From: Somniosus microcephalus
Lineage: Eukaryota
NCBI GenBank assembly: GCA_052327205.1
Contig: JBMRGM010000043.1
Location: 31,434,001 to 31,498,000, forward strand
Reading direction: 5' to 3'
DNA: 64,000 nt
This document shows, one piece after another, positions 16,022 to 54,113 of the stretch. Both the position numbers and the translations under genes were made by a program. A model generated the notes under the pieces. That model was given only the letters and a program-made list of their open reading frames with translations, ran no database searches and was not told the DNA's origin. The number at the start of each line of letters is the position of its first letter. The stretch's first letter is position 1.

Positions 16022-16113
16022 GGTGACAACTGAAAATAGATCTGTACCTCCGAGTGAAGAAACATCTGCGAGCAATTTCGAGTATGCAGTTGGGGGATCA
16101 GCCCCAAATACTG
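16022..16113 (+). CDS. Cytoplasmic exon 2, gene A (FEYAVG)
   Basis: 92 nt, phase 2-1, VTTENRSVPPSEETSASNFEYAVGGSAPNT; aAG / GTAAGC. Confidence 0.8.
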
Positions 16114-17096: not shown

Positions 17097-17153
17097 CTTC
17101 TAGTTCTGACCAGGTAACCTACAGTTTAGTACAAGGCACGAAGCCCATGGAAG
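17097..17153 (+). CDS. ITIM exon, gene A (VTYSLV)
   Basis: 57 nt, phase 1-1, ASSSDQVTYSLVQGTKPME; pyrimidine tract, cAG / GTAAGG. Confidence 0.85.
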
Positions 17154-17699
17154 GTAAGGATTCGCTGTGTTACTTTGCTAGAGGGCTTGTAGCGTCTGTC
17201 TTCAGTTTGTGAGACGTCATCTGGGAAGAGCCTGAATCGATTGATGCATTATAGGACTGACACCACAGTACCAGTATTTGTAAAAGAAAAAATCACTATA
17301 GGCTCTTTGTAAGTTCCATCTCTCGGGATTAGTATCCTTAGAACCTGCACACAAACTCCCCTGTTCTGGTTTTTTGATAACATCATAACTGGCCGGACTA
17401 TTAATGTTGCCATAAACTGCAATGACGATAACAAATGCTTAATATAAGTCGATCGATACATTTGAAGGCAAATAATGTGTACTTTTGGTGGCAAACATCA
17501 TCCATTCTTGGACATTTAAATCAATGCTATTCAATTAATGGTTATATATCATCCTTATTAAACTGATGGAAAAGACATGATCTATTCCCATGCACTATAT
17601 TCATATTATGGATACTAATACGGTTGTCTCAATTCATTATCGCTATCAATTAATTTATATCAAGCAATCAATCAGTCTACCTTTGTAAATGGCTATCCA

Positions 17700-17845
17700 T
17701 TTATCCATCAATATGTTTCTATCTATGTATCTATCTATCTTTATATCTATTTTCCAAATATCTATATCTTTCTATCTATCTCCCCGTGTCTTCCTCCCTA
17801 TTTCTCTATATATATCTATCGTCTCTCTATCATCTATATATTAAT
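17700..17845. repeat. Degenerate (TCTA)n microsatellite (paralog 48175-48325)
   Basis: tctatctatgtatctatctatc runs. Confidence 0.75.
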
Positions 17846-17886
17846 CCCTCGTTTTTGACTTGTTTTCTCTTTTTGTTTCTGTTTAG

Positions 17887-17952
17887 ATATTACCGGAAAT
17901 GCTGCCAATTTAGTGTATTCGGAGGTCACTATCAGAAAGTCACGAGACTGTG
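17887..17952 (+). CDS. ITIM exon, gene A (LVYSEV)
   Basis: 66 nt, phase 1-1, DITGNAANLVYSEVTIRKSRDC; tAG / GTAAAT. Confidence 0.85.
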
Positions 17953-18059
17953 GTAAATTCTGTGAATTGTTCGCTGCTGTTGCTAAGGGAGATGATAATT
18001 ACAGTTCTAGATAATGTTGGGATATTCCTGTGCTTGGTATAGTGGGAATGAGGCACATG

Positions 18060-21000
18060 GACTGTAAACTAAATAGTGGGGGTTGGGAATCAGGTGAAGG
18101 GGAACTTCGAAAGTCAAAGAGAAGGTAGAAGGTAATAGTGCAAGGTAGCGATAGGGTTAATGATAACTAGAGAGTGACAGGAGGAGATAGAGCATACAAA
18201 CATAAACGTGCAACTACACATAGATTCAGAGTCGGTAAAAATGGTATAAAATAAATAAAAGTTATTTATCTGAATGCACACAGCATTCGTAACAAGATAG
18301 ATGAGTTGGCGGCATGAAGAGAAATAAATGTGTGTGATCTGAAAGCCATTACAGAGACGGGGTTGCAAGGTGACCAAGGCTGGGAACTGAATATTCAGGG
18401 GTATTTGACATTTCGGAAGAATAGGCAGAAAGCAAAAGGAGTTGGGTAGCTCTTTTAATAAAGGATGATATCAGTGCAGTGACGAGAAATGATATTGCCT
18501 CAGGAAATCAAGATGTAGATATAGTTTAAACGGAGAGAAGAAATAATAAGTGAAATAAGTCACTAGAGGGAGCAATCTATAGGCCTCGTAAAAGTACCTA
18601 CACTGTAGGACAGAGTATAAATCTTGAAATAATATTGGCTTGTAAGAAATATACTGTGATAATCATGGGCAATTTTAATCTTTATATAGATTGAACAAAT
18701 CGAATTGACAAGGTTAGCCTTGAGGACGAGTTCATAGAATGGATTCAGGATGTTTTGCTAGAACAATACGCTGTGGAATCAACCAGGGAGAAGGCTATTT
18801 TAGACCTGGCAATATGTAATGAGGCAGGATTAATTCATGATCTCATGGTAAAGGATTCTCTAGGGAACAGTGATCATAGCATGATGAATTTCTAATTCAG
18901 TTTGAGGGTGAGAAACTTGGGTCTGAAACTAGTGTCCTAAACTTAAATAAAGGCAGTTACAAAGGTATGAAGGCAGAGTTGGCTAACGTAGACTGGGAAA
19001 ATAGATTAATGAGTAAGACGGTAGAAAATCAGTGACAGGTATTTAAGGATATTTTTCGTAACTCTCAGCAAAGATTTATTCCAGCGTCAAAGGCAGACTC
19101 TACGAGAAGGATGAACATCTGTGGCTAACTAAAGAAGTTAAAGACGGTATCAAATTGAAAGAAGAGGCAGATAATGTTGCAAAAATTAGTGGTAGGTCAG
19201 AGGATTGGGAGATTTTTGGAATTCGGCACAGGATGAATAAAAAACTAATAAAGAGGAAGAAATAGATTATGAAAGGAAATTAGCACAAAATATAAAGAAA
19301 CAGACAGTAAGAGCTTCTACATGTATATAAATGGGAAGAGAATAGCTAAAGTAAACGTTGGTCACTTAGAGGATGGGACTGGGGAATTAATAATGGGAAA
19401 CAGGGAAATGGCAGAGACTTTGAATACACTAAAAGCATCACAATAATAATTGGTAATCAAGGGCTATGTTCACAATATATATCAGTAATTTAGGTGAGGG
19501 TACCAAATGTAATATTTCCAAGTTTGCTGACGTCACGAAACCAGGTGGGATTGTGAGTTGTGAGGAGGATGCAAAGAGGCTTCAAGGTGATTTGGAGAAG
19601 TTGACTGAATGGGCAAATACATGGCAGATGCAGTATAACGTGGATAAATGTGAGGTTATCCATTTCGGTACAAAAAACAGAAAGTCTGAATATTATTTAA
19701 ATGTTGATAGATTGGGAAATGCTGAATTACAGAAGGACCTGGCCGTCCCTGTACACCAGTCACTGAAAGCAAACATGGAGGTGCAGCAAGCAGTTAGGAT
19801 GGCAAATTATATGTTGGCCTCCATTGCAAGATGACTTAAGTAGAGGAAAAATGAAACCTTACTACATTATACGGGGCCTTGGTGAGACCTTGTGCATTTT
19901 TGGTCTCCTCACCTAAGAAAGGATAAACTTGCCACAGAGGGAGTGCAGCGAATGTTCACCAGTCTGATTCCTGGGAAAGCAGGACTGTCGGATGAGCAGA
20001 GATTTGGTCGACTAGGCCTGTATTCACTAGAGTTTAGAAGAATGAGAGGGGATCTCATTGAAACGTATAAAATTCTGACAGTGCTAGACAGACGGGATGC
20101 AGGGAGGATGTTTCCCTGGCTGGGCGGGTGGGGTCTAGAATGATGGGTCACAGTCTCAGGATGCGGGGTAGGACATTTAGGACTGAGATGAGGAGAAATT
20201 TCTTCACTCAGAGGGTGGTGAACCTATGTAATTCTCTACCACAGATGGCTGTCGAGGCCAAGTAACTGAATATATTTTTAGAAGGAGATAGCTAGATTTC
20301 CAGACACAAAAGGCATCAAGGGGTATGAGTAGAGAGCGCGAATATGATATTGAAATAGATAATCAGCCATGATCACTTGAATGGCGAGCAGGCTCAAAGG
20401 GATGAATGGCCTACTCCTGCTACTAATTTTCAATTCACTATGTTTTCTAAATCAATGACTATCACTAGAGAAAAACTGCGAGGCAAATTAATGAGACTAA
20501 AGACTGACAATTGCCCTGGACCTGATGGCCTACTTTCAAGGGTCTTAAAAGAAGAGGCTCCAGAGATACTGGATGCGTTGTTTGTAATCGACCAAAATTC
20601 CATGGATTCTGGCGAGCTCCCAGTGCCTTGGAGAACCGCAAATGAAGCACTTCTATTAAAGAAAGGAGGGAGGCAAAAAGCAGGAAACTATAGGCCAGTT
20701 AGCCTAACATCTGTCATTGGGAAAATGCGGGAATCCATTATTAAGGAAGTCATAGCAGGACATTTAGAAAATCCTAATGCAAACAAGCAGAGTCAACATG
20801 GTTTTATGGAAGGGAAATTGTGCTTGACAAATTTACCAGAGTTCTTTGAGGATGTAACGAGCAGGGTGGATAAAGGGGGACCATTAGATGTGGTGTATTT
20901 GAATTTCCAGAAGGCATTCGATAAGTTGCCACATAAAAGGTTACTGCACAAGATAAGAGCTCATGGGGTTGGGAGTAATATATTAGCATGGATAGTGGAT

Positions 21001-22035
21001 AGGATAACTAACAGAAAAATAAAAAGCCGGGATAAATGGGTCATTTTCCAGTTGGCAAACTTTAACTAGTGGGGTGCCACAAGAATCAGTGCTGGGGCCT
21101 CAACTATTTACACTCTATAGTAATGACCGGGCCAAATTTGCTGATGATACAAAGATAGGTGGGAAACAAATTGTGAGGAGTACACAATTAGTTTGCAAAT
21201 ATAGATATGTTAAGTAAGTGGGCAAAAATATCGCAGATGAAGATTAATGTGGGAAAATGTGAGATTATCAACTTTGGTAAGAAAATTAAAACAACAAATT
21301 ATTATTTAAATGGAGGGAGACTATTTAATCCTGCCATACAGAGGGATCTGGGTGTCCTCGTATTTGAAACACAAAAGGTTAGCATTCAGGTACAGAAAGT
21401 AATTAGGAAGGCAAATGGAATGTTGTCCTTTATTGCCAGGGGGTGGAGCATTAAAGTAGGGAAATCTTGCTACAACTGGAGTACTGCATGCAGTTTTGGT
21501 CTCCTTATTTCAGGCGGGATATACCTGCATTGGAGATAGTTCAGAGAGGGTTCACTAGGCTAATTCCTGAGATGAAGCGATTGTCTTCTGAAGAAACGTT
21601 GAGCAGGATGGGCCCATACACATTGGAGTTTAGAAGAATGAGAGGTGATCCTATTGAAACATATAAGATTCTGAGGGAGCCTGACAGGGTAGATTTAGGG
21701 AGGATGTTTCCCCTCGTGGGGTAATCTAGAAGTAGGGGGCACAGTCTCAGGATAAGGGATCGCCCATTTAAAATGGCGATGAGGAGTAATTTCTTCTCTG
21801 AGGTTCGTGAATCTTTGGAATTCTCTACCCCAGTGAGCTGTGGAGGCGGAGTCATTGATTGTATTCAAGGCAGAGATAGACATATATGTGAGCTACAGGG
21901 GAGTGAAGGTTTTTGAGGAGCGGATGGGAAAGTGGCGTTGAGGGCAATATCAGATGAGACATGATCTTATTGAATGGTGGTGCAGGTTCGAGGGACCGAA
22001 TGGCCTACTCTTGCTCCTATTGCTTATGTTTCTTA
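18060..22035 (+). mobile_element. Composite degenerate CR1 (endonuclease region plus two RT/3' fragments); paralog 48555-52185
   Basis: IMGDFN, ILDL, SDH endonuclease motifs; jump to FTIYI at 19466; 3' UTRs at ~20430 and ~22030. Confidence 0.9.
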
Positions 22036-22325
22036 TGAAATATCACGTAGATGTTATTAGCACATGTAATTTTTACCTTACTCAGCCTGGCCGAAAATGG
22101 ACAGGGTCTGGTGAAATGTCGGTTCTCAATCGCACCCATTTTTACTCTCCTACTACAATGGAGAGAAAATCCACTGGGGATAAACCCAGAAATTGTCCCG
22201 ATCCCTTCAGTTTACCGGTAGGGTAGGTGAGATTAAAATGACCCCGGATTAGGCTGGATTCATCTAATTCTGTTCATCAACTTCCCCAGATTGTTTCATT
22301 TATAATGCGTCTCCTTTATTTACAG

Positions 22326-22357
22326 GTAATGATGGTGGCGCCTCAGGAAGGAAACAG
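22326..22357 (+). CDS. Cytoplasmic mini-exon, gene A
   Basis: 32 nt, phase 1-0, GNDGGASGRKQ; cAG / GTAAGT; supplies the phase shift required by the last exon. Confidence 0.8.
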
Positions 22358-22947
22358 GTAAGTTATCTTTATAGGGGAAAGATGCTGCTGATAAATACCA
22401 CGACCAATGCGGGTAGATTTCTAACTTACCTTCGCAAAGTAAAGTGTCAGCCATCAGTTATAGCAATGGCCCGATTGATACACACACCCTTATTGAAAAG
22501 ATAGTCGTTTGGACTGTGAACCGAGCAGCACATTCGCTGTCACCCGTTATGGTCCCACACTGCCCAAAAGCAATTTTAAACCTGATGTCTATTATTCTCT
22601 ATCATTGGGGCAGATATTCTGCTTGCTTCTTGGGCTTAATAGAGGCAATCAGGATCTTTCACGCAGAATAGAAAACGCACACATTTAATTTGCATTGATT
22701 TGAATTAAAAGTAGAATCCGGCGGTTCCGATCACTGCAAGTTTTAAGCCTTGACCCAATTTCTAATATCCACATCATTCTGTCTGCAAAGGTCATCACTA
22801 AACTGAATATATTGTCTCCACCCCACTCAAGTAGCCAGTGAATAGTAATTTAATTCCCGACGATTATTTTAAAAATTCAGTTACCAGTTGTTTACAAAAT
22901 GGTAAAGACAATTGTAGATTCATTCCCCCGAAAGTTCATTGCAATCA

Positions 22948-23535
22948 TGGGTGCAGTAGCTTAGTGGTGACATAACTGGACTAATAATCCAGAGGCTTCG
23001 ACTAATGATCCGAAGAAATGAATTCAAATCCCACCACCGGCAGCTGGGGAATGTAAACTCAGTTAAATAAATAAATCTGGGATAAAAAGCTGATAACAGT
23101 AAAGGCGACCACGACACTCTCAGGTTGTTGTAAAACCCAACTAATGTCCTCCAGGAAGGAAATTGGCTGTCCTTACCTGGTCTACCCTATATGTGACTCC
23201 AGACCCACTGCCAATGTGGTTGACAGTTAACTGCCCCTGAAATGGCCGAGCAAGCGGCGCAATTGCAACAAACCATTACGAAAAGATGTTACCCCTATGG
23301 TAACACCTTCCCCTCCAAGTCACACACCATCCTGACTTGGAAGTACATTGCCATTCCTTCATCGTCGCTGGGTCAAACTCCTGGAACTCCCTGTCTAACA
23401 GCACTGTGGGATAACCTTCACCACACAGATGCAGCATTCCAAGAAGGCGGCTCACCACCACCTTCTCCAAGGCAATTACGGAGGAGCAATAAATGCGGGC
23501 CTTGCCAGTGATGCCCACATCCTGTGAATGAATAA
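22948..23535 (+). mobile_element. tRNA-derived SINE followed by L2-type 3' fragment (paralog 53093-53680)
   Basis: A-box-like TAGCTTAGTGG, B-box-like TTCAAATCC, L2-type end ..CCCACATCC(TGAA)n. Confidence 0.65.
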
Positions 23536-23840
23536 AAAATTATCATCCCTTGTTTAAATTTAGTCGTTGGTTTATTCATTGCTCGTTTCATTCCAACCAT
23601 TTTCTTTAATTTTTTTGCTATAAAATAAATTCAGAGAGGAATCATAAGTGTATTTTTGTGTGACCTCAGCCAGTTAATTGTCAGTAGTTTTGAACACACT
23701 GAAAATCGGGCGATATTGAATTGGCCATCCATTATCCATCTCTCCCGACTTCCCTTCCACTGAAATAACCACTGATTCTACCTCGCCAGCTGTGCGCCAC
23801 CGCCTGAGACCAATTTCAGCTTCCTGTTCATTAATTCCAG

Positions 23841-23969
23841 GCTAACAAGAATGGTCCCAACGACTATTGTGTCACATACGCCATAGTTAACCGTGCAAAC
23901 ACTGAAGCTAGTTTGGAAGGAGGCCCAATGGAAGAAGGCTGTGTCTACGAAAACTTTCCACGGAAATAA
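23841..23969 (+). CDS. Terminal coding exon, gene A (ITIM VTYAIV, YENF)
   Basis: ANKNGPNDYCVTYAIVNRANTEASLEGGPMEEGCVYENFPRK*; ccAG acceptor, phase 0. Confidence 0.88.
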   Translation, partial: ANKNGPNDYCVTYAIVNRANTEASLEGGPMEEGCVYENFPRK

Positions 23970-28916: not shown

Positions 28917-28947
28917 ATGATTCACATCTGTCGCCTTCTGACCTTGT
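28917..28947 (+). CDS. Signal peptide exon S1, gene B
   Basis: ATG..31 nt MIHICRLLTL then GTAAGT, phase 1; paralog at 58073. Confidence 0.72.
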
Positions 28948-31676: not shown

Positions 31677-31706
31677 TGCAAATTACTCATCAGGCGACCA
31701 CACAAG
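31677..31706 (+). CDS. Signal peptide mini-exon S2, gene B
   Basis: 30 nt, phase 1-1, LQITHQATTQ; strong pyrimidine tract, gcAG / GTATGA; paralog at 60806. Confidence 0.75.
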
Positions 31707-32649
31707 GTATGATGACAATAATGTCCTTTATTGATAATAATCCAGTTGTGGAATGAACGCTTCCAATTTATATCTATAGGACAACAACAATCCAGCAATG
31801 GAGTAATTATCAGCTGTTCGCCCGTGCGTAAAACTGTGGTTCTGGACTCGCCACCTATGAGAAACTTTCGGTCATCATTTTCATTGATTCGGTGGGAATG
31901 TAAAGTGGGCGGTTTCTCTCACGGTCGGCCAATCAGAACCCCAGTTTTAAGCCTCGGCGCCAAGTTTAATGTCTACCACAATATATTAAAGAAAAAGCGA
32001 CCTAGAAATTTGTCTGTGTAACTGCTAGATCATTTAACTGTGGGTTGGCAGCGAGTAATCATAACTGAGTAAATAAATGGATGGATAGATAGACAGTTCT
32101 TTGTTGAAGTAACAGGGAATGCTAATCAAATTAGTGCAGTTCACTGTCGTGTATATAGACTTTCAAAAAATGCCTAATGAAGTACCACACAACTGACTTG
32201 TTCGCAAAAATCGTATTGTTATCATTGCGATTAAGGGGTACGGACAGCGTGGATAAGAAATTGTCTGAGACAAGGAAGCAGAGAATAGTTTTCAATTTTC
32301 GTTTTCTGTGATTGGAAGGGAATATTCAGTGTTATTCATAGTCATAGAGTTATACAGCACAGAAAGAGGCCCTTCGGCCCATCGTGTACACGCCAGCCAT
32401 CAAGCCCTATCTATTCTAATCCCATTTTCGAGCTCTTGGTCCGTAGCCTTGTATGCTGTTGCGTTTCAAGTGCTCATCTGAATGCTTCTTGAATGTTGTG
32501 AGGGTTCCTGCATCTACCATTTCATGATGATATGGAAATATATGGAAAGCGTACTTATTCTGTGTCGCTTTTATGCTTTCGCTAGTAAATCTGATGGGAG
32601 AGTGCATGGAGCACACTCCGACCATTCTGTTCTGCAATGACATACGGGG

Positions 32650-33692: not shown

Positions 33693-34005
33693 AAGCTGGG
33701 TCCGGTGTAAATCACAAAATCCTGATTTGCATGGTGACAGAGGAGTACCGCCAGGAAAAGGCAGGTGCTTCTGCCGCCCAAAGGTCGGCCATTCTAAAAG
33801 TTTAAGCAGCCAGGGAGTTTCCGTTTACAACGTGCTGAGGTCGATATCAACGATGTAAAGTCATCACCAACTCAAAAGATCGATCCATGGGCACCCGATA
33901 GGTAGCGCCCATTTTGGACAGCGACTAGAAATTCTCTGTAGTGGATATTGCACAGATTAGTTTCAACAATTCTAATCAGAACATTATTTTATTTTCATTC
34001 TACAG

Positions 34006-34260
34006 CCCATGTCCCAGAAGTAGTCCTTAGCAATCCGAGCGATGGAATCGTGAAAGAAGGGGAGACATTTTACCTGCATTGTCGATACAGAGGCATGAAT
34101 AAATGGGCTTATTGGTATAAAGATGAGACTTATATTCATTTTAAATATATGTTCTTTGAAAGATATGCAGATAGTCGCAGTGGAGCGTCTTACCAGTGTT
34201 CAGTGCCGCCGCCTTGGTCCTCCTCTGAGAAGAGTAAACCTCTGGATTTAGTCACCATTG
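34006..34260 (+). CDS. Ig exon D1, gene B
   Basis: 255 nt, AHVPEVVL..EGETFYLHC..YWYKD..GASYQC..LDLVTI; cAG / GTAGGT. Confidence 0.88.
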
Positions 34261-36076
34261 GTAGGTAAACTTCGACACCAATGATCATAGCTCAGTTTTA
34301 GTCGAGAAATGTGTCGCTTATAAAGGGGCCTCACAGTCAAATATAGTACAGGATATCAAGCACATGCAATACTGGGATAAAATTGGACCACTGGGCAGAA
34401 GTGTATCTTCATCCCTCCTCCTAACAGGGGGACCTCTCGGTTTCCCCAGAGTTGAAATATATGCCGCTATTTTGTGCGGTAGTATCAGCCAGTTTCACCT
34501 CCCATTTATATCACATTAACTTCAATTGAAATATCGCACAGAGTCTAAATCTACCCAAATTCTTACATGTTGTTAGGTCAATCAAATGTTATTTATTTCA
34601 AGAGAGACCTTAAACCGCTAATTGTGCATGGAACAGCGGCTCTCTAAAACAGCAGATACGAGAAAGCCACCGTTAATATCTCCTAGAGTAATTTTAAGAC
34701 TGTGTTGAAAGCTTAAATTCTATTTCCAAAGTTCAAACTACAAAATCTGTGATCTGCAAACTAGTTTATATTAATAATAATGACATCTGAGAATTGCTGT
34801 GTCGCCTTCTGGCTGCGTTGTGTCGCTGGTCTGATATGCAATGACTTCTCCATTTAAACATTACTTCATCCTCTGCGAAGTAGGTTGTAGGGTGACCCAT
34901 CACAGGTTTAAAATCCAACTTTGGTGGAAGCACGTAATGGGCTCTACTCTCTCCAACCCTGTTACAAATCAAATGTAAAAGTCATAAAACCGACTGCTGT
35001 TTCGTATTCGCTCATTTGCCGCCAATGTGTATTGCAAATTTATACCGGAGTGGGAATAACTTTACCTTTCATCGCAGGGTGAAATAAACAGGCGAGGTCC
35101 AATCAATCGCCATGTTTTAGATTCAGGTGGAGTCGCATTTCTATTTACTTCAGTGTTAAATAAATCGAGAGTGGTTTGAAACTTATGGCTGCTCCATTAC
35201 TGCCCTTTGGCCTCTTGGCGGTAAAAGTGAAAAGTAGCTCAAGTGTATCCTCCCGGCGCTCCCCTGGGATCAGGATTGGTTGGAAGTGCATCTGCAGACC
35301 CGAGGCATGGTGAGAAGTGGAGTGTACATTTATCTTGTGTCTCTCAGAAAACAAATTATTATGAGGTGCAACGAATGCTTTTATCTAGGTAATAAGCAAT
35401 GCTAGAAAAATTGTTGATAGGTGACTAACTAGGGGCGCTCCTTGAGCACTGCCACAAGTTTATTGTATGTGCAGTGCAAAAACCCTTTACATACATAAAT
35501 GGGGTTCCCTTCCGCACACCTGGCGAAGTTACAGCGGAGGAGCGAAGGCAGGAAATTGCCCTGTGTTTCCACAAAAGGTAATGGGACAATGAGCAGCTAA
35601 TTTGTTTGGTCTTGCTGGACGAACGAGCAATACCCCAGGACACTGGAACGACTTCTTCGTCTTGGCGTCGTTCAATGGGATTTTTAACTGATATCAGAAG
35701 CACCTGAACAGGTGAAAGCGGCCACGGTTTTAATATCTTGATTCCACAACATTTACAAATACCAGACGTTTATTTAGAGAGGGCTGGGCATCTGCCTGGC
35801 TGTTGAATCGATCCTCGCCATTGAACTTCGTTGATGAAACCTTGAAGGGCAATATGAGCAGTGATAGCTCAGCATTAGAAAGGGAACGGTCACTCTCTGA
35901 ACCAATAAACATTAGTTTGGCTTTTCAGGTCTTAAAATTACTTTTAGTTACTGAGGTGATACCGATTGCTCTGGATATTGAGCTGCACTTTCAAGCCAAT
36001 GTTTTTTAACATTGAAGAAGGGTGCTTTAACATATTTTAATTTGTATTTCGTTCATATGTTTCACTTTTTTTGCAG

Positions 36077-36343
36077 CTTCTGATATGAATTTAACTCTGG
36101 AAGTGAATCCAACATCCGCACTGTCAGGTGACAGTATTATCCTGAAATGTTTGATGCCTTCCTGGAAATGGAGAGGAGGTTTTCCCTTCCTGTGGTATCG
36201 AGATAAACAGTTAATAGCAGAAACTGACGAATCTCAGTACACCATAGAAAACGCAAAAGAGTCAGATACGGCACCATATCGGTGTGAACTCAAAATACGT
36301 TACAGGAAGTGGATCTCCCCGGATGTAACCATCACCATAAAAA
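36077..36343 (+). CDS. Ig exon D2, gene B
   Basis: 267 nt, ASDMNLTLEVNP..GDSIILKC..LWYRD..DTAPYRC..SPDVTITIK; gcAG / GTTGGT. Confidence 0.85.
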
Positions 36344-36429
36344 GTTGGTCACTGCTTTTCTTTTTCATTTTCTTTATTTGATCTGGTAATGAGCTGTTGA
36401 AGGATGTGAAGTATTCTAAGAATCCTTGG

Positions 36430-37131: not shown

Positions 37132-37409
37132 AACTCTTCTCCAAACCTAAACTGAGGACTGAGCCTACAGTTAAAATATTTGAGGTAGATCAGTTAAAAT
37201 TCATTTTTTTTATTGAAACAATGCTGTTCAATATTAGGCTTCAATACACATTTCACAAAAATGGCAAAGCTCTGCAGTTGAATTCATACATCAACTCTAA
37301 GCACATGGGGGCAGCTTCTTTGAAGGGCTCGGTGACTTAGCCTTGTTGAGCAAATGCTTTCTACCACCGTGATAACAACAGAGTGATGAGGTTTCCATTA
37401 CGGTAGAAG
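37132..37409 (+). pseudogene. Ig pseudo-exon (ELFSKPKL type), gene B
   Basis: Acceptor AG changed to CG, first Cys to Phe, in-frame TAG and TGA near the second Cys. Confidence 0.85.
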
Positions 37410-38744: not shown

Positions 38745-39023
38745 AGCTCTTCTCCAAACCTACATTGAGGGCTGATTCTGAAGCTCAAATATTTGAGGGC
38801 CAACAGTTAAATCTCGCATGTTTGGTTGAAATATTTCGCTCCAATTCGTCTTTGAGATATGTATTTTTCAAAAATGAACAAGCTCTCAATTCAGCGGCAG
38901 ACCACAACTATTACATCAAGGAGACATCACTGCTGGACGATTCGGGGATTTACCAGTGTGAAGCAAGTACTTTGAACAGTGAGGTGAAGAAACTGAGTAA
39001 TCAGGTTTCTGTTTCAGTCAGAC
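38745..39023 (+). CDS. Ig exon (D3-like), gene B
   Basis: 279 nt, ELFSKPTLRA..LAC..DSGIYQCEAST..VSVR; tAG / GTGAGT. Confidence 0.9.
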
Positions 39024-39902: not shown

Positions 39903-40190
39903 GAATCCCAGTGTCCAAACCGGAACTGGCAATCAGCCCTGGTAAAGAGTTACTGGAAGGCGACACAGCATCGTTAACCTGCTCAGTGTTCAACGGTTCT
40001 ACCCCGATTACCTACATATTGTACAAAGGCCCAAATAAAGAACTCTTCCGAGAGGAGTCCAACCTAACCGAAATTACTTACCAAATCGGTAAAGTCAACC
40101 AAAGCACCCAAGGGGATTATATTTGTGGTGTTTCAAACGAAGCGACCAGACGTCCTCTACACAGCGATTTTGTTACGGTTGCAGTGCTAG
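39903..40190 (+). CDS. Ig exon (D5-like), gene B, canonical acceptor mutated
   Basis: Open 288-nt paralog of 9325-9612; TG replaces AG at 39901-39902; in-frame AG at 39910-39911. Confidence 0.72.
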
Positions 40191-41846
40191 GTGAGTTATT
40201 ATAAATACCTCTGAGGCAGAACGAAACAAGTGACTCAGTGAGAACAGTCCGGGAATCACTGCTTTTGCCAATAGCTTGGACGTTGTAACATCTTCTTTGA
40301 CATTCTTCTGTGTGAAGTGAGGCACTGCGCCATTTACATTAAACAGGTGAATGCCTAAAAAGAACAAGAATGTCATCTGATTGCATCAAGTATTGGTCTA
40401 CAAACTGCAACTGTTAGTTGTAGATTTAAAACGGCCGATCAGTCTGTTTAATTGACAAATTGAGAGAAGTTATACGGAGAGGTTAATGACGACTCAAATC
40501 TTAATACCATCGGCAGTAATTTTTGGGCTATAAATTTTAGAACATCATCTCTTAACCGTAGCTGCTAATACTTTTGTATTTGTATATGGGATTGGGCGTC
40601 GCTGGCAACATTTGCTTTAATTGGCCATCCCTAATTGCCCTTGAGAAGGTAGTGGTGAGCCACCTTCTTGAACCGCTGCAGTCCACGTGGTGATGGTACT
40701 CCCACAGTGCTGTGAGGGAGGGAGTTCCAGGATATTGACGCAGCAGCGATGAAGGATCGGCGATATACTTCTAAATCAGGGCAATGTGTGGCTTGGAGGG
40801 GACCTTGGAGGTGATGGTGTTTCCATGCCCCTGCGGCCCTTGTCCTTCTTGGGGGAAGAGGTCGCGGGTTTGGGAGGTGCTGCCGAAGAAGCCTTGGCGA
40901 GTTGCTGCAGTGCATCTTGTAGATGGTGCACACTGCAGCCACGGTGTGCCAGTGGTGGAGGGAGTGAATGTTTAAGGTGGTGGATGGGGTGACAATCAAG
41001 GGGGCTGCATTGTCCTGATGGTGTTAAGATTCTTTAGTGTTGTTGGAGCTGCACTCAATAGAAAAGTGGAGAGTATTCCATCACTCCTTAATTGTGCCTT
41101 GTAGATGGTGGAAAGTCTTTGTGGAGTCAGGAGGTGAGACACGCGCCAGAGATTACCTAGACTCTGACCTGCTCGTGCTGATAATATATTTCAAGCTCAG
41201 TTGGACAATATAGGTTCCATCCCTATATTGGAAGATGGGCAACAGTGGAGCCCTCAGGCTTTCGGCCCGAATTAAGCTTTGCTCTGAAGCGGGCCATTGT
41301 AACTTTAGCCGAAGGTGAAACATGGGTCATATCGTAGAGTTCGCCCATTATAATCAACGTCATATATTTCCTTCCATTGCCTGGTGGATTCCCCCCGCAT
41401 TGTTCTGTATGTAACTCAGCGCAAGTTGTACTGATGGCTCATTGTCACCACCACATTGAGGCCGGTGACAAAGGAAATCTGCACATGTTTCAGTGCATTA
41501 ACGAACCTACCTGAAAACAATCATCTTGTTTGTCCACTCGCTATATTTCCCGTTTCATATACAGTCCTGTTGAAAACTTTCAATTTTGGAAGAAAACCTA
41601 CTATTTGGTGTTATGTGCAGAAACATTAGTTAGAACTAATATTCAATATCACTAATGGAACAGCGCAAGGACAATTCTGAACTAAATATTTTCGCCAATG
41701 CATTTACACCTGATCAACAATTCTTGCACCAGTCTGATTTATTTATCTGATTTAATCTAAGTGAGTACTCAAAATAGGTTTCAATTTTGAATTGTAACTT
41801 GCAGAATTAATTCTCTACATCTTTAATCTTATCTGCTTTCCACTAG

Positions 41847-42149
41847 TTCCTGCAGCTGGTGCTTCTCTCACTTCCAATGCCAACAAAACTGAGATTTCAG
41901 CGGGGGACCGTCTCTTTCTCCAGTGCCTGGTGAAGAGAGGCACTGCACTGCTTTTCCGCTGGTACCTGAACAACCAACAGTTAGGAAACAACAGCGAATC
42001 TTATCACTTAAGCAGGGACGGGAGTGAACTCATTATCAATTCATTCCAGACAGGCCATGGAGGTCGATATCACTGTGTAGCGACCAACAGAGGGAGCTTT
42101 GAAGGAATAGTAATGACAACCAGCAATTATATCGATGTCACGGTACCAT
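41847..42149 (+). CDS. Membrane-proximal Ig exon, gene B
   Basis: 303 nt, VPAAGASL..GDRLFLQCLVKRGT..FRWYLN..HGGRYHCVATN..IDVTVP; tAG / GTAACA. Confidence 0.85.
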
Positions 42150-42979: not shown

Positions 42980-43081
42980 CACAAAGTCACACAACCGCGA
43001 TCACAGCAACAGTTCTTCCACTTTTTCTGATCGCTGCCCTGATTGCACTGGTTTTCTTCAAACTTCGGAAGCAGAAACAAG
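42980..43081 (+). CDS. Transmembrane exon, gene B
   Basis: 102 nt, QSHTTAITATVLPLFLIAALIALVFFKLRKQKQ. Confidence 0.9.
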
Positions 43082-43606: not shown

Positions 43607-43637
43607 ACAATTCCTCAAGTGTTTCACAGCCGCAGGG
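43607..43637 (+). CDS. Cytoplasmic mini-exon 1, gene B
   Basis: 31 nt, DNSSSVSQPQG; cAG / GTAAGT. Confidence 0.8.
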
Positions 43638-45638
43638 GTAAGTCTGCAAAATCTTTATATTAGTCCATCGTAACTATATCCATGATTATACTGAAAGCTG
43701 AAAATCCTCTTTGGCCCGGGTGCAAATTATACGCCCCCAATTGGAACCGAATATTGGACTCGACCTAGACGGTCGCTAGTTGCGCCTTTTATGCCTCCAC
43801 GTACAAATGGAATTACACCCCATAGTCTCTGATATAGCTCCGATGGAGACGGTTGGAATGTTTAAGTGCTAAATACTCTCTTTTTTTGTTCTTGCTTTTT
43901 AGTTTATCAACAGGTCAGTCAGCCTAACATAGTTATTGGAAACCATTATTAGGGAAAAAATAAACATTAATTTGTAAAGACATTGTTTAATCAAGGAGAT
44001 GCAACATGGATTTGTTAAAGGAAATCATGTGTGACTAACTTGATTGAATATTTGATGAGTTAACAGAGACTTTTGATCAAGATGGTGTAGTAGATGTTGC
44101 ATATATTGACTTGCAGAAGGCAGTCATCCGAGGCTTGTTAAAAAAGATGTAAACCCATGGGATTAAGGGAAAGTGGCGTTATGGATACAGAATGGGCTCG
44201 GTGACAGGAAGCAGAGAGTGGTGGTGGATGGATATTTCTCAGACGGGGAGGTGGTTTTGCAGTGGTGTTCCCCAACAGTCATTTTGGGGTCCAGTACTCT
44301 TTGAATTTTAATGACTGACCTAGACAAAGGTGTAAGGAGCAACATTGTAAATCTGCAGATGATACATAACTTGGCCAGGTAGTAGATTGTGATGAGGATA
44401 GTTGTAGTCTTCAGGGTGACATAGACAGGAATGGTTAAATGGGCAGAAGCATGGCAGATGGAGTTCAACCTGGAACTGTGAAGTGATGTACTTTTGGAGA
44501 ACTAATCTGGAAAGACAATATACAACAAAAGCCACGATTTTGAAAAGTGTAGATGAGCAGAAATACTTTGGTGTGCATATACACAAATCCTTAAATATGA
44601 CATGGCAAGTAGATAAGTTGGTTAAAGAAGCATATGGATCATTTGTTTTTTTAAAATAGCAGCTTATAATGTAAAAGCAAAGAGAACAAGCTAGAACTTT
44701 ATGAATCAATGTTTAGGTCTCAGCTGGACAATTCATGGTAGCAACTCATCAAGGCTTCTTCGGCAGCAGCTCCAAAACACGCAAACTCTTCCAACTAGAA
44801 GGACAAGGGCAGCAGGCGCATGGGAACACCACCACCTCCAAGTTCCCCTCCAAGTCACACACCATCCTGACTTAGAAGTATATCGCCGATCCTTCATCGC
44901 CGCTGGGTCAAAATCCTGGAACTCCCTCCCTAACAGCACTGTGGGAGTACCTTCACCACACGGACTGCAGCGGTTCAAGGAGGCGGCTCACCACCACCTT
45001 CTCAAGGGGCAACTAGGGATGGGCAATAAATGCTGACCTTGCCAGCGACACCCACATCCAAAATACGAATAAAACCACACTTCAGGAAACATAGTAAGAG
45101 GCAAAGAAAGGTTACAGCGGAGGTTTACAGGATATTGCAAGGGATGAGGGACTTTATTTACGAGCAGTGGTTGGATAATTAGGACATGGAATAGAGAAGG
45201 TTAAGAGGTGAGCCATTAGAGATTTTCAAGGGGATGAGAAGTTTTGTTAGAGTAGATAGAGAAACAATATTCCCTCTTGGTCAATAACTAGAGGTCATAG
45301 ATTTAACATCATTGTATAAAGATCTTGAGGGGAGATGTGGAGAAATATTTTTCAATGAGAGAGTTGTCGGGATGTAGAATGCTCTACCTGAAAATTTGGT
45401 GGAAGCTATTTCCATCAATAACTTTAGCAGTGAGTTGGACGGATCGTTGACGATGAGGACCATTTAGGGCTGCGGACAACAGCCAGGGATATGGGACTAA
45501 GTACGATTGCTCCTTCAAGGCATTCTATGTTCTGTATATCTACTTCTGAATTCTATGATTCTGTAACATTTCGTTAAAAGTTAACTTTGCGTTGTTGATG
45601 CATGAATCCTAAATATCTGAGAACATTTTCGTGCACAG

Positions 45639-45730
45639 TGTGGCAACTGAAAATAAATCTCTAACCCCGAGTGAAGAAACATCTGCGAACAATTTCGAGT
45701 ATGCAGTTGTGGGATCAGCCCGAAATACCG
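45639..45730 (+). CDS. Cytoplasmic exon 2, gene B (ITIM-like FEYAVV)
   Basis: 92 nt, VATENKSLTPSEETSANNFEYAVVGSARNT; cAG / GTAAGC. Confidence 0.82.
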
Positions 45731-46720
45731 GTAAGCGTGAACTGACACATGTGAAAAATATGGTAGATTGTTCATGGTAACATTGGTTCTGCCGGTAACC
45801 CATCGTATCTTCGGTGGAATATCGGTAAATATTCAGGGAAACGGCCATATATGCATGGCTTGCGGCAATATTCCACTGACGTTGTGACAGGACATGGTGG
45901 AAATCACCCATGGACATTGGAGTTCTTCATCTGCAAGCATTCAGAATACCCTCGTGTTAGATTCCCATCTTATTGTCTGGGTATTAAGCATCGCATGGGT
46001 CGAGCATACTCAGGGAAATAGTTGAGGCACTTGGCACGGTTCAATTGAACCATGTTAGTGGAAAGAAAAGCTGGTTGGTTCCGTAAAGGATGTGCCTGTT
46101 GCCCCAGCAGACTGAGCAGTCTGCGCTCTTTGCAGGTGATGCTAACTGTTCCGATGCCAAAACAAAAATCTACCCCCTATTCCCTTTTAATTTTGAATTC
46201 ATTATTTCCTCTACCTCTCATTTTTCTTTTTTCTGATGGTAGTGGTTCTCAATCGGCTGGGATTGATAGGTGGACATCTGGGTGCTAGTCCAAAGTTTTA
46301 ATCTCGGAACCTGATAATCAGACATATTGAACAATATCTTGAGTATTAAATTGATTTGGGGAACTGTCTCCTCCCCACCATTACAAATCAACTTTCCAAG
46401 CAAAGGATGCTGGAACTGGTCCTCAGCCCGATATCTGGGTGCCTGGAATGGAGTAATCAGAGAATATGCTTCTCACCGTCACCCTGTTTACAAGCAAGCG
46501 ACTCAGCCCAGCCCTATGGCTTGGGACCAAAACACTTCATGAATTTGCTCACGGGACGGTGGATCAGCTTGTATTGATCAGGATAATTAGTTGCTTAATT
46601 TTAATACCAGTAAACACAGCAGTAAATTTCTAATCATGAATTGTAGGTTGTGTCTGGTATCTAAATGCTTCCTTAATTAACTATGTCATTGAGCACAGTT
46701 TCCATTTATTCTCTCTGCAG

Positions 46721-46777
46721 CTTCTATTTCCAATCATATAATCTACAGTGTAGTCCAAGGCACGAAACCTATGGAAG
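46721..46777 (+). CDS. ITIM exon copy 1, gene B (IIYSVV)
   Basis: 57 nt, ASISNHIIYSVVQGTKPME; cAG / GTAAGG. Confidence 0.82.
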
Positions 46778-47556
46778 GTAAGGATTCGCCTTGTTACTTG
46801 GCTGGAGGGATTTGTATATCTCATAGGGCTTCATAACTACTGTGAGGGTAGCGACTGTCTTCAGACTGTGAGAAGTAATCTGGGAAGGGTCTGAATCCAT
46901 TGATGCATTATAGGACTGGCACCACAATCACAGTATTTGTAAATGACAAAATCACTATTGGCACTTTGTAAGTTCCATCTCTCGGGAGTAGTATCCTTAG
47001 AACCTGCACACGAACTCCACTGTTCTGGTTTTTAGATAACTATTGTGTGGAACATCGTAATTGGCCAGACTCTTAATGTCACCATAAAATGCAACGACGA
47101 TAACAAATCCTTAATATAACTCGATCGATACAGTTGAAGGCAAGTAACGTGTACATTTGGCAAACATAATCCATTCTTGGACATTTAAATCAATGCTATG
47201 CAATTAATGGTTATATAACTGAGGGGAATGATATGCTCTAATTCCATGCACTATATACATATTATGGATACTAATACGATTTTCTCAATTCATTATCGCT
47301 GTCAATTAATTTATACCAAGCAATCAGTCAGTCTAGCTCTGTAAATAGGTATCCATGTGTCCGTCAATATCTTTCTATCTATGACTTTGCTCACGGGCCT
47401 GTGGAGCAGCTTTTATTGATCAGGTTAATTAGTTGCTTCATTTTAAAACCAGTGAACACAGCAGTAAATTTCCAATCATGAATTGTAGGATGGATCTGGT
47501 ATCTAAGTGCTTCCTTGATTATCATTGATCGCAGTTTCCTCTTTCTCGCTCTACAG

Positions 47557-47613
47557 CTTCTAGTTCTGATCAGATAACCCACAGTTTAGTACAAGGCACG
47601 AAGCCCATGGAAG
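47557..47613 (+). CDS. ITIM exon copy 2, gene B (Tyr to His, ITHSLV)
   Basis: 57 nt, ASSSDQITHSLVQGTKPME; splice sites intact. Confidence 0.78.
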
Positions 47614-48378
47614 GTAAGGATTCGCTGTGTTACTTTGCTGGAGGGCTTGTTAACTACTGTAAGGGTAGTGACTGTCTTCAGATTGTGAGACATCATCTGG
47701 GAAGAGCCTGAATCGATTGATGCATTATAGGACTGAAACCACAATACCAGTATTTGTAAATGAAAAAAATCACTATAGGCACTTTGTAAGTTCCATCTCT
47801 CGGGAGTAGTATCCTTAGAACCCGCACACAAACTCCCCTGTTCTGATTCTTAGATAACATCATAATTGGCTGGACAATTAATGTTGCCATAAACTGCAAT
47901 GACGATAACAAATGCTTAATATAAGTCGATCAATAAAGTTGAAGGCAAATAATGTGTACTTTTGGTGGCAAACATCATCCATTCTTGGACATTTAAAACA
48001 ATGCTATTCAATTAATGGTTATATATCATCCTTATTAAACTTATGGAAATGACATCATCTATTCCCATGCACTAAATTCATATTATGGATACTAATACGG
48101 TTGTCTCAATACATTATCGCTAGCAATTAATTTATATCAAGCAATCAATCAGTCTACCTCTGTAAATAGCTATCCATGTATCCATCAATATCTTTCTATC
48201 TATGTATCTATCTATCTTTATATCTATCTTCCAAATATCTATGTATCTTTCTATCTATCACTCCATGTCTTCCTCCCTATTTCTCTATATATATCTATCG
48301 TCCCTCTATCATCTATATATTAATCCATCTTAATGAAGCCTTATTTTTGTCTTGTTTTCTCTTTTTGTTTCTGTTTAG

Positions 48379-48444
48379 ATATTACCGGAAATGCTGCCAA
48401 TTTAGTGTATTCGGAGGTCACGATCAGAAAGTCACGAGGCTGTG
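48379..48444 (+). CDS. ITIM exon, gene B (LVYSEV)
   Basis: 66 nt, DITGNAANLVYSEVTIRKSRGC; tAG / GTAATT. Confidence 0.85.
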
Positions 48445-51400
48445 GTAATTTCTGTCAATTGATCGCAGCTGTTGCTAAGCAAGATGATAATTACAGTTCT
48501 ACATAATGTTGGGTTATTCCTCTGCTTGATATAGTTGGAATGAGGTACATGGACTGTAAACTAAATAGTGGGGAGGGGGGAGGGTTCAGTTGAAGGGGAA
48601 TTTAGAAAGTCAAACAGAAAGGAGGAGGTAACAGTGCAAGGTAGCGATAGGGGTAATGATAACCAGAGATTGACAGGAGGAGACAAAGCATACAGACATA
48701 AACGTGCACTTGCAAACAGATTCAGAGTAGTTAAAAATGGTATAAAAATAAATAAAAGCTCTTTAACTGAATGCATGCAGCATTCATAACAGGATAGATG
48801 AGTTGCCGGCACAAATCGAAATAAATGGGCATGATCTGATAGTCATTACAGAGACGGGGTTGCAAGGTGACCAATTCTGGGAACTGAATATTCAAGGGTA
48901 TTTGATATTTCGGAAGAATAGGCAGAAAGCAAAAGGAGTTGGGTAACTCTTTTAATAAAGGATGTGATCAGTGCAGTGGTGAGAAATGATATTGGCTCAG
49001 AATATCAAAATATAGAATTTGTTTTAACGGAGATAATAAATAGTAAGGGAAATAAATCATTAGCGGGAGCAGTCTATAGCACTCCTAACTGTAGCTACAC
49101 TGTGTAGGACAGTGTATAAATCAAGAACTAATAGGGGCTTGTAAGTAAGGTACTGCGATAATCATGGGCGATTTTAATATTCATATAGCTAGAACAAATC
49201 TAATTGACAAGGTTAGCCTTGCGGACGAGTTCATAGAATGTATTCGGTATGGTTTCTTAGAACAATACGTTGTGGAATCAACCAGGGAGATGGCTATTTT
49301 AAATCTGGTAATATGTAATGGGGCAGGATTAATTAATGATCTCATGGTAAAGGATCCTCTTGTGAAGAGCGATCATAGCATGATGAATTTCTAATTCAGA
49401 TTCAGGGTGAGAAACTTGGGTCTGAAACTTAAATAAATTCAATTACAAAAGGTATGAAGAAAGAGTTGGCTAAAGTAGACTGGGAAAATAGATTAAAGTG
49501 TAAGACGGTAGATAGGCAGTGACAGATATTTAATGAGATTTTTCATAACTCTCAGCAAAGATTTATTGCAGTGTGAAAGAAAGACTCTACGAGAAGGATG
49601 AACATCCGGGGCTAACTGACGAAGTTTAGGATGGTATCAAATTGAAAGAAAATGCATAATATGTTGCAAAGATTCGTAGTAGGTGAGAATTGGGAAATTT
49701 TTGAAAATCAGCAAAGGATGACTAAAAAATTAATAGAGGTAGAAGATAGATTATGAAAGTAAACTAGCAAAGAATATAAAAAAACAGAGACTAAGAGCTT
49801 CAACAGGTATATAAATGAAAGATAATAGCTAAAGTAAACGTTGGTCCCTTAGATGATGGGACTGGGGAATTAGTAATGGGAAACGGGGAAATTGCAGAGA
49901 CATTTAACAAATATTTTGTATTGGTTTTCACGGTAGAAGACACAAAAAGCATCCCAATGATAATTGATAATCAAGGTGCTGTATTCACAATATATATCTA
50001 AAATTTGGGTGAGGGTCCCAAATGTAATATTTCCAAGTTTGCTGACATCACAAAACTAGGTGGGATTGTGAGTTGTGAGGAGGAGGCTAATAGGCTTCAA
50101 GCTAATTTAGACAAGTTGATTGAGTGGGCAAATACATGGCAGATGCAGTATAACGTGGATAAATCTGAAGTTATCCATTTCAGTACGAAAAACAGAAATG
50201 CAGAATATTATTTAAATGTTGATAGATTGGGAAATGTTGATGTACAGACGGACCTGGGCGTCCCTGTACACCAGTCACTGAAAGCAAACATGCAGGTGCA
50301 GCAAGCAGTTAGGAAGGGAAATTGAATGTTGGCCTTCATTGCAAGAGGAGTTGAGTACAGGAGCGAGGATGTACATTTATACAGGGCCTTGATGAGACCT
50401 TGGGAGTACGGTGTACAGTTTTGTTTTCCTTACCTAAGAAAGGATATACTTACGATAGAGGGAGTGCAGCGAGGGTTCATCAGACTGATTCCTGGGATGG
50501 CAGGACTGTCGTCTGAGGAGCGATTGGGCCGACTAAGCTTTATTCACGAGAGTTTAAAAGAATGTGAGTGTATCTCATTCAAACGTATAAAATTCTGACA
50601 GGGCTAGACAGACTGGATGCAGGGAGGATGTTTCCCCCGGCTGGTGGATCTAGAAGGATTGGTTACATTCTCAGGATGGCGTACATTCAAGGTTCTTAAA
50701 TGAAGTGGCTGCAAAGATAGTCGATGCATTGGTTGTAATCAACCAAATTTCCCTGGATTCTAGAGAGCTCCCAGCGGCTTGGAAATTCGCAAATTTAACG
50801 CTCCAATTGAAGAAAGGAAAGAGGCCAAAAGCAGGAAGCTATTGGCCAGTTAGCCTTACATCTGTCATTGGGAAAATGATGGAATCCATTATTAAGGAAT
50901 GAATAGCAGGACATATAGAAAATCATAATGCCATCTACTTGAGTCAACATGGTTTTATGGAAGGGAAATTGTGCTTGACAAATTTATTGGAGTCCTTTGA
51001 GGATGTAACGAGGAGTGTGGATAAAGGGGAACCAGTAGATGTAGTGTATTTGAATTTGCAAAAGTCATTCGCTAAGGTGCCAGATAAAAGGTTACTGCAC
51101 AAGATAAGAGCTCTCGGGCTTGGGGGTAATATATTAGCATGGATAGAGGATTGGCTAACTAACAGAAAACAAAGAGTCGGGATAAATGGGTCATTTTCCG
51201 GTTGGCTAACTGTAACTAGTGGGATGCCACAGGTATCAGTTCTGGGGCCTCCACTATTTACAATCTATATTTATGACCTGGCCAAATTTGCTGACGATAC
51301 AAAGGTACATGAGAAACAAGTTGTGAGGAGGACACAATTAGTTTGCAAAGGGATATAAATATGTTAAGTGAGTGGGCAGAAATTCGGCACATGCAGTATA

Positions 51401-52479
51401 ATGTGGGAAAATATGAGATTATCCACTTTGGTAAGAAAACTAATGAAACAAATTATTATTTAAATGGGGAGAGACTACCTAATGCTGCCATACATAGGGG
51501 ACTGGGTGTCCTCATACTTGAAACACAAACGGTTAGCATGCAAGTACAGCAAGTAATTAGGAAGGCAAATGGAATGTTGACCTTTATTGCCAGGGGGTGG
51601 AGCATAATAGTGGGGAAGTCTTGCTACAACTGGAGTATTGCGTGTAGTTCTGGTCCCCTTATTTCAGGCGGGATACACTTGCATTGGAGGCAGTTCAGAG
51701 ATGGTTCACTAGGTTAATTCCTGAGATGAAGGGGTTGTCTAAAGAAGAAATGTTGAGCAGGGTGGGCATTTACGCATTGGAGTTTAGAAGAATGAGAGGT
51801 GATCTTATTGAAACATATAAGATTCTGAGGGTGCTTGACAGGGTAGATTCAGGGAGGATGTTCCCCCTCGTGGGGGAATCTAGCAGTAGTGGACAAAGTT
51901 ACAGGATATGGGATCGCTCTTTTAAAACGATGATGAGGAGGAATTTCTTCTCTGAGGTTGTGAATCTTTGGAATTGTCTAACCCAATGAGCTGTGGAGGC
52001 AGAGTCATTGAGTATATTCAAGGTGGAGATAGACATATATTTGAGCTACAGGGGAGTTAAGGGTTTTGAGGAGCGGATGGGAAAGTGGGGATGAGGCCAA
52101 GTCAGATCAGTCATGGTCGTATTGAATGGTGGTGCAGGTTCGAGGGGCCGAATGGCCTACTCTTGCTCCTATTTATGTTTCTCATGAAATATCACGTAGA
52201 TGTTATTAGCAGGTGTAATTTTAACCTAACTCAGCCTGGTCGAAAAGGGACTGGGTCTGGTGAAATCCCTGTTGTCAATCGCACCCAATTTTACTCTCCT
52301 ACTACAAGGGAGAGTAAAGTCCATTGGGTGTACACCCACCCTGAAATTGTCCCGATCTCGTCAGTTTACTGCCAGGGTGGGTGATACTAAAATGACCCCG
52401 GATTAGGCTGGATTAATCTGATTCTGTTCATCAACTTCCCCAGATTGTTGCCTTTATAATGCATCTGCTTTATTTACAG

Positions 52480-52511
52480 ATAATGATGATGGCGCCTCAG
52501 GAAGGAAACAG
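52480..52511 (+). CDS. Cytoplasmic mini-exon, gene B
   Basis: 32 nt, DNDDGASGRKQ; cAG / GTAAGT. Confidence 0.8.
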
Positions 52512-53984: not shown

Positions 53985-54113
53985 GATAACAAGATTGGTC
54001 CCAGCGACTATTGTGTCACGTACGCCACAGTTAACCGCACAAACACTGAAGCTAGTTTGGAAGGACGTCCAATGGAAGAAGGCTGTGTCTACGAAAACCT
54101 TCCACGGAAATAA
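53985..54113 (+). CDS. Terminal coding exon, gene B (ITIM VTYATV, YENL)
   Basis: DNKIGPSDYCVTYATVNRTNTEASLEGRPMEEGCVYENLPRK*. Confidence 0.88.
   Translation, partial: DNKIGPSDYCVTYATVNRTNTEASLEGRPMEEGCVYENLPRK

Follow-up and report, generated by a model that had tools for sequence, protein, structure and literature searches.

FCRL-like genes of a Somniosus microcephalus cluster: probable recombinants of old outer Ig lineages, a likely diversifying D1, conserved D4-D6 and exchanged tails

Why do two genes that align closely through promoter and leader part company at their outer immunoglobulin (Ig) domains? The question is raised by genes B and C, which, together with the 3′ part of gene A, lie in a stretch of 64,000 nucleotides (hereafter the window; contig C43, JBMRGM010000043.1, positions 31,434,001-31,498,000) inside a ~1.6-Mb FCRL-like cluster of the 6.4-Gb genome of Somniosus microcephalus. 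The initial annotation proposed mosaic genes with swapped or rapidly evolving ligand-binding tips on a homogenised signalling chassis, as in pathogen-driven paired receptor families. Our preferred reading, to which we give a probability of about 0.7, is that A, B and C are recombinant FCRL-like members combining outer Ig domains of likely old lineages, a B-type D1 that is likely diversifying, conserved D4-D6 and exchanged tails; outer Ig domains of separate lineages would thus have been recombined onto conserved D4-D6 stalks.

Genes of the window and their family

The genes of the cluster, taken for exon mapping as 30.284-31.948 Mb of C43, follow one plan: a leader exon S1, a 30-nt leader mini-exon S2, Ig exons in varying subsets of D1-D2-Dx-D3-D4-D5-D6, a transmembrane (TM) exon and cytoplasmic exons (Table 1). 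The domain names are labels of the present analysis, not FcR subtypes, and the Ig exons are all in phase 1-1. Exons of the window match elasmobranch (shark, ray) proteins automatically named Fc receptor-like (2/3/5/6) or PECAM-like, which have the same leader, domain types and tail motifs and are the family itself. Pfam Ig_2 or Ig_3 matches 8 of 9 exons, and a sevengill homolog (P0003) finds human FCRL5 as its best PDB match (E 1.8e-59), then FCRL4 and FcgRI, with far weaker matches to PECAM1; Pfam and FCRL5 matches together place the ectodomain in the FcR/FCRL-type C2 Ig class. The AlphaFold model of B D1 (pLDDT 89.6) matches C2-type domains including those of FceRI and FcgR. The shark cluster has ITIM-type tails, as mammalian FCRL1-6/Fc-gamma receptors do, but domain identities of FCRL/FcgR to the B D1 model are low (mostly 14-24%), with no FcR subtype match for D1, and D1-D2 match FcgR weakly (E about 1e-4, by similarity search only).

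A human 1q23 arrangement was not found, in what is a weak test with few markers: the cluster lies on C43, an FcR-gamma-like exon and a calponin-repeat gene on C40, and PRCC on C41. RGS-like hits fall on C26 and C12, and the synteny marker DDX5 was matched nowhere in the genome. Among the LRC linkage markers PRPF31 and CNOT3 (PMC6557307, cited, like all papers named here, for its accessible text), a PRPF31-like gene lies on C43 at 16.3 Mb, 14 Mb away, and a CNOT3-like one on C28. Orthology with FCRL is not established, because the 1q23 placement is missing and the LRC markers disagree, and the anatomy suggests an FcR-like paired family.

Several features of the cluster are recorded here for themselves. 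Further family members lie 5 and 9 Mb off, at 25.30-25.52 Mb and 21.5 Mb of C43; the cluster counts given below omit these related copies (25.3-25.5 and 21.5 Mb), which are known from search loci only. Scores of the 25.32-Mb gene equal those of the 30.32-Mb gene, a possible duplication or haplotype duplicate. Genes at ~30.36-30.67 Mb are on the minus strand, in an inverted block mirroring 30.67-30.9 Mb, with an assembly gap at 30,665,637-30,666,137; at the edge, a B-type gene breaks off behind D1. Ahead of most A-type genes (e.g. 31.408-31.423 Mb), every repeat unit carries leader exons (S1, S2, S1) that are orphans, lacking Ig exons, and there are 70 S1 exons as against 39 TM exons. Other Ig-like exons flank both cluster ends; those at 31.895-31.897 Mb look degenerate, and a PDB search with the two Ig-like open frames there gave no useful match. 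A frame resembling histone H3 was noted at 31.892 Mb. LINE-like long insertions with strong GC skew occupy window positions 18000-22000 and 48500-52200; A and B carry them in the same cytoplasmic intron, as an 86% block.

Gene B has intact D1 and D2 exons. Its D3 is dead, as in all B-type copies carrying one (acceptor CG or CA), and skipping it, which we predict, would preserve the frame because all Ig exons are in phase 1-1. At the D5 acceptor (39901-39911) gene B alone has TG, the rest of the B-type copies AG. With another AG in frame 9 nt further on, D5 may be either trimmed or left out. The 57-nt ITIM exon of B is duplicated (46539-47383 vs 47381-48204; exons within 46721-47613), with the Tyr of the second copy changed to His. 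Among public runs, one (X2, of a kind not on record) has contigs that begin at the D1 acceptor, preceded by 24 foreign letters, that break off at the D2 donor, followed by 56 letters, and that join 43079 to 43605 over a GT..AG intron between the TM and the next exon; these contigs are spliced RNA from some B-like copy. Run X2 has zero cover over the dead D3 exon, and the D2-to-D4 joint was absent among the matches listed. Among the runs listed as containing D1 none was marked as RNA, and the raw RNA runs X7 and X8, of which 24% and 31% were read, gave scant cover of gene B and no splice joint.

In gene A, whose D1 and D2 lie 3.5 and 2.3 kb ahead of the window, an internal duplication Dx-D3-D4-Dx-D3-D4 spans 848-9612; its first D3 is frameshifted in this copy, and its first D4 lacks the second Cys in all A-type copies. 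Gene C, beyond the window, has a frameshifted D3, stops in D4 and D6, TT as its TM donor and an Arg-type TM, and is a pseudogene.

Table 1. Exons and other features of the window (positions counted from its first letter)
Feature	Position	Strand	Remarks
Gene A, 3′ part	848..23966	+	dead D3, D4 without second Cys, Dx, D3, D4 (8356-8634), D5, neutral TM (11811-11912), ITIM-type tail
Gene B leader exon S1	28917..28947	+	ATG, 31 nt
Gene B leader mini-exon S2	31677..31706	+	30 nt, phase 1-1
Intron-2 switch zone, B ceases to resemble C and A	32000..32300	.	LINE-fragment-like sequence (judged by eye)
Gene B D1 Ig exon, intact	34006..34260	+	13-14 variable sites among near-identical copies, all nonsynonymous
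Gene B D1 hot spots	codons 31-33 (BC loop, 34098-34106); codons 66-69 (FG loop, 34203-34214)	+	
Gene B D2 Ig exon, intact	36077..36343	+	
Gene B dead D3 exon	37132..37409	+	acceptor CG, 278 nt, frameshift, stops; predicted in-frame skip
Gene B D4 Ig exon	38745..39023	+	'D3-like' in the initial annotation
Gene B D5 Ig exon	39903..40190	+	open frame; acceptor TG in this copy only
4-nt microhomology	40691..40694	+	B-side junction point (B sequence to Arg-TM tail) of six copies elsewhere in cluster
Gene B D6 Ig exon	41847..42149	+	
Gene B neutral TM exon	42980..43081	+	
Gene B cytoplasmic exons, whole span	43607..54110	+	
Gene B cytoplasmic exon	43607-43637	+	
Gene B cytoplasmic exon	45639-45730	+	FEYAVV
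Gene B cytoplasmic exon	46721-46777	+	IIYSVV
Gene B cytoplasmic exon	47557-47613	+	Tyr lost
Gene B cytoplasmic exon	48379-~48444	+	LVYSEV; end read by eye
Gene B terminal exon	~53982-54110	+	VTYATV, VYENL
Gene C leader exon S1	58073..58103	+	
Gene C leader mini-exon S2	60806..60835	+	
Gene C D1 exon, A/C lineage, degraded	62143..62376	+	6 codons short, first Cys to Gly, no Pfam hit
Gene C D2 exon, A/C lineage	63089..63349	+	

Mosaicism and exchange of tails

Through promoter and leader, B and C are as alike as first described: the block 27825-32290 of B is 86.4% identical in DNA to 56942-61411 of C, and a three-way alignment shows B departing from both A and C over about 32000-32300. The end point of ~32300/61400 given for the similarity is right; it had been placed just beyond intron 1 and in fact sits in intron 2, the leader being made up of two exons. 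The hand estimates for the outer domains (D1 roughly 40%, D2 about 50% of amino acids) agree with the aligned exons, D1 being 45% identical over 75 aligned codons, or 40% of the longer exon, and D2 51%/50%. Most of the flanking intron length does not align, as had been judged by eye, but patches do at 68-72%: 203 nt (69%) leading into D1, 155 nt (68%) after D1 and 334 nt (72%) over D2. The 'D3-like' exon pair of A and B, for which 19 differences in 93 residues had been counted, exists as well (8356 vs 38745, 79% of 92 codons), but it is a D4-type exon.

Downstream, the exons of gene C taken from the genome give B-C protein identities of 70% for D4 and 78% for D6, and since these stand against 40% and 50% for D1 and D2, a uniform B-C divergence is ruled out. 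The outer domains are thus far more diverged than D4 and D6, but not than everything else, since protein identity is only 61% for the TM exon and DNA identity 65% over the TM-cytoplasmic stretch. The homogenised signalling chassis does not survive, as the tails of B and C differ in class; the conserved or homogenised part is the membrane-proximal D4-D6 stalk, not the signalling end. By segment (exon plus flanks), B/C identity is 91% for S1, 89% for S2, 62% for D1, 64% for D2, 81% for D3, 73% for D4, 86% for D6 and 72% for TM. Among lineage representatives of the family (open exons, <96% nucleotide identity), mean amino acid identity is 56% for D1, 60% for D2, 64% for Dx, 66% for D3, 74% for D4, 75% for D5 and 81% for D6, with 65% for TM; exons with stops, frameshifts or lost splice sites were left out here and in the codon models below.

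Trees of ten segments, with up to 13 representative genes each, conflict. For D1 and D2, C falls beside A (78/88%), and the partners of B are two other genes (84-92%); for TM, B groups with A (87%). When clades from the tree of one segment were tested on another, 6/6 AU tests rejected them (p-AU 5e-4 to 2e-47), which bears out the proposal of mosaic genes. A swapped tip is seen in g8063 and g15883, which at D2 are 73% identical and over D3 through TM 100%. More often it is the tail that is swapped: B-type genes are 99-100% identical from leader to D5 and carry either tail type, with 68% identity at TM between ITIM-tailed and Arg-tailed genes.

Of the 39 TM exons in the mapped cluster, 21 are neutral and go with ITIM-type tails; the other 18 have an Arg at their outer end, and the Cy4/Cy5 tyrosine-motif exons follow none of these 18. 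Ten B-type D1 copies comprise four with ITIM tails, five with Arg tails and one truncated, and the same D1 is encoded at 31.064 Mb (Arg) and 31.758 Mb (ITIM). This anatomy, with ITIM and Arg-TM forms bearing near-identical ectodomains, supports the paired-receptor family that had been suggested, and we predict an inhibitory role for the ITIM-type tail and an activating one for the Arg tail. A single junction recurs in six copies: up to it they match B at 99.7%, after it the tails of g8063-type genes at 98.0-98.5%. The parents are unalignable there and have 4 nt of microhomology only, on which ground a homologous crossover within a repeat common to both was rejected. At 31.34-31.40 Mb an ITIM-type B gene lies directly ahead of a g8063-type gene, so that a deletion of about 42 kb would yield the chimera; the Arg-tail B form may have been born when such a deletion (~42 kb) fused a B gene to the Arg-tail gene next to it, and may have spread by tandem duplication.

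It is possible, if unlikely, that the Arg-TM copies are tail-less decoys or drifting debris, which would make the family one of inhibitory receptors plus decoys instead of true pairs. A single base change (ACA to AGA) creates the Arg, the LRC-type NxxR motif was found in 2/18 Arg-TM exons (1/5 Arg-TM lineages), several Arg-TM genes are broken (C, g15255), and no other-shark protein with such an Arg and a short tail was retrieved by a search that favoured long proteins. Against this, the Arg and an open TM frame are kept in 5/5 Arg-TM lineages, a double stop directly follows the last exon in 4/5 tails, the fifth ending a codon further on, and the main Arg-TM exon has 0/102 variable positions in 11 recent copies compared with 18/796 in its flanks (not significant alone). 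Three Arg-tail sequence types retain an SxYxxV motif; the main Arg tail has lost its lone tyrosine motif, with the stop just past its last exon. The genome also has two zeta-family TM exons, on C40 and C14, which from their motifs we take to be FcR-gamma-like and CD247-like, respectively; the presence of the former argues against decoys or debris, and the Arg-TM form may pair with such an FcR-gamma-like adaptor.

Age of the tips and probable selection on D1

A tree with the proteins of other sharks, in which the species' own seven D1+D2 pairs were forced into one clade, was rejected (p 0.0135 and 0.0171), and B-type tips group with sevengill, carpet-shark and catshark sequences. Single-domain AU tests of an own clade give 0.060 for D1, 0.076 for D2 and 0.073 for Dx, with long branches involved. 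The own D4+D5 form one clade (support 88/86), as does D6, and grouping B's D4+D5 with the D1-D2-D4-D5 type genes of other sharks was rejected (p 0.008), which sets aside whole-gene orthology of B with those genes. On this moderate evidence from sequence comparison, B-type and A/C-type tips are likely old lineages joined to a D4-D5 stalk that is particular to this species, in which it would have been homogenised or expanded.

The B-C gap has three causes, likely old tip lineages, probable diversifying selection and decay of gene C, and much of it is old lineage divergence. Part of the distance is decay because gene C is a pseudogene. The pace of protein change alone is insufficient for D1, where the synonymous distance is high too: B-C dS is 0.84 in D1 and about 0.2 at D4/D6, and the family mean is 0.74 in D1 vs 0.15-0.32 in other exons.

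Probable selection in progress shows among near-identical copies. In nine B-type copies aligned over 5.3 kb (these block statistics leave out the copy at 30.368 Mb, which ends after D1), diversity is 0.003-0.004 in introns and 0.019 in D1, with variable sites at 14/249 positions of D1, 5/267 of D2 and 47/4882 of introns (22/2300, 15/1795 and 10/787). All 14 D1 sites change an amino acid (codons read by hand), and two copies have an in-frame deletion of 2 codons in D1. A ten-copy count gives 13 nonsynonymous and 0 synonymous sites (Fisher p 8.8e-5 vs introns); of the 18 exon sets, B-type D1 alone falls below 0.05 (0.0016 after Bonferroni), and the chance of all its sites being nonsynonymous is 0.014-0.044. 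B-type D4 has 7 nonsynonymous and 0 synonymous sites but is not enriched relative to its flanks (p 0.29). Nor is there an excess in the 11 copies of A-type D1 (6/252 vs 27/800), so current selection appears confined to one lineage. The modelled strands of B D1 (4-9, 20-27, 35-38, 41-46, 49-53, 60-66 and 79-83) leave codons 31-33 to the BC loop and codons 67-69 to the FG loop, both of which, in Ig domains, belong to the tip farthest from the membrane.

Codon models for each domain, the check proposed in the initial annotation, give M8 vs M8a p values of 0.023 for D1, 0.0008 for D2, 0.0001 for Dx, 0.0007 for D3, 0.31 for D4, 0.41 for D5 and 0.16 for D6. The D1 signal is marginal, with a family-wide M0 omega of 0.54 and M2a vs M1a p of 0.10, and 0.023 fails correction for seven domains. 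Note that these tests used our own code and fixed trees, included exons of broken genes, omitted from D4 the exons without the second Cys, and can be inflated by recombination; among B-type copies, 149/276 informative site pairs are incompatible. Rapidly evolving tips are thus seen for B-type D1, from the site excess, and for D2, Dx and D3, from the codon models, but not for D4-D6.

It is improbable that the D1/D2 gap is history only, that is, old blocks recombined onto younger promoters and stalks plus the decay of C, with no positive selection. Such a history does account for most of the B-C distance: synonymous and intron divergence (flanks 68-69%) climb with protein divergence at D1, gene C is a pseudogene and the M2a test of D1 is not significant. 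It leaves unexplained the D1 excess of 13-14 to 0 at an intron diversity of about 0.003, and the M8 signals of D2, Dx and D3. A local mutation or conversion hot spot, or assembly error, is very improbable as the source of B-type D1 variation: 6/14 sites do fall in three adjacent codons, exchange among copies is heavy and only 2/14 sites (34079 and 34210) recur in contigs of other public runs among the matches listed, but synonymous companions are absent, errors would not spare introns and silent sites, the variants recur across copies, and the variant BC-loop codons are absent from the other D1 lineages fetched in the cluster, which disposes of a donor there. We conclude that B-type D1 is probably under diversifying selection.

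Relation to known paired receptors

The D1 loops may contact a variable ligand, most likely either a molecule by which a pathogen exploits the ITIM form or a self molecule that is polymorphic, and a changing ligand such as a pathogen likely drives the tip variation. The evolutionary pattern is already familiar from other paired receptor families, e.g. Xenopus XFL. The XFL genes (PMC2413239) have in common with the shark genes a large cluster, a two-exon leader, combinatorial Ig domains, shuffling, birth-and-death, charged TM with short tail vs neutral TM with YxxL/I/V tails, and pairs with identical ectodomains. The XFL signal peptide is spread over two exons by a 30/21 nt rule (PMC2413239), whereas the shark leader is split into 31 nt coding and a 30-nt mini-exon, not 21 nt. 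XFL TM1 has an NxxR motif and its tail within the TM exon, whereas the shark Arg arose from a neutral TM and two spliced tail exons remain; XFL also adjoin SLAMF8/IGSF9/DUSP23/TAGLN2, a linkage not found for the shark cluster (PMC2413239).

Xenopus CEACAM pairs (PMC5112662) have matched and selection-diversified ligand-binding domains, like the presumed ones of the shark, but the frog matching is by N-domain gene conversion and the shark's by a whole ectodomain joined to another tail. In LILR/KIR and teleost LITR, too, activating and inhibitory partners have matching ligand-binding domains that selection has diversified, and in LRC receptors an Arg at the outer end of the TM serves pairing with FcR-gamma (in part PMC6557307 and PMC2413239). 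The domain families of CEACAM, LILR/KIR and LITR differ from those of the shark. The accessible text of the LITR review PMC4810170 has nothing on distal-domain variability. A literature search, with subscription papers and supplements outside its reach, found nothing on the evolution of shark FCRL clusters.

More tentatively, and with less than even odds in our estimate, the activating arm was invented afresh, by Thr-to-Arg and tail loss, and grafted through microhomology onto a D1-D2 lineage predating the split of shark orders, with an arms race in the D1 loops of the twins.

This last reading, if true, would make the shark system the earliest-branching example of FcR/LRC-type paired receptors. 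FcR-like molecules are absent from cartilaginous fishes according to the accessible text of a survey of 2014 (PMC4016189) and a review of 2026 (PMC13337447), the survey having found no FcR-gamma; the cluster and the FcR-gamma-like exon contradict both at the level of sequence. The selection signal names specific residues of the D1 loops and natural inhibitory/activating-type twins with the same D1. With these residues and twins, the proposal that FcR/KIR-type paired receptors first arose to sense pathogens (PMC2413239) becomes testable in a lineage that split off before the bony fishes.
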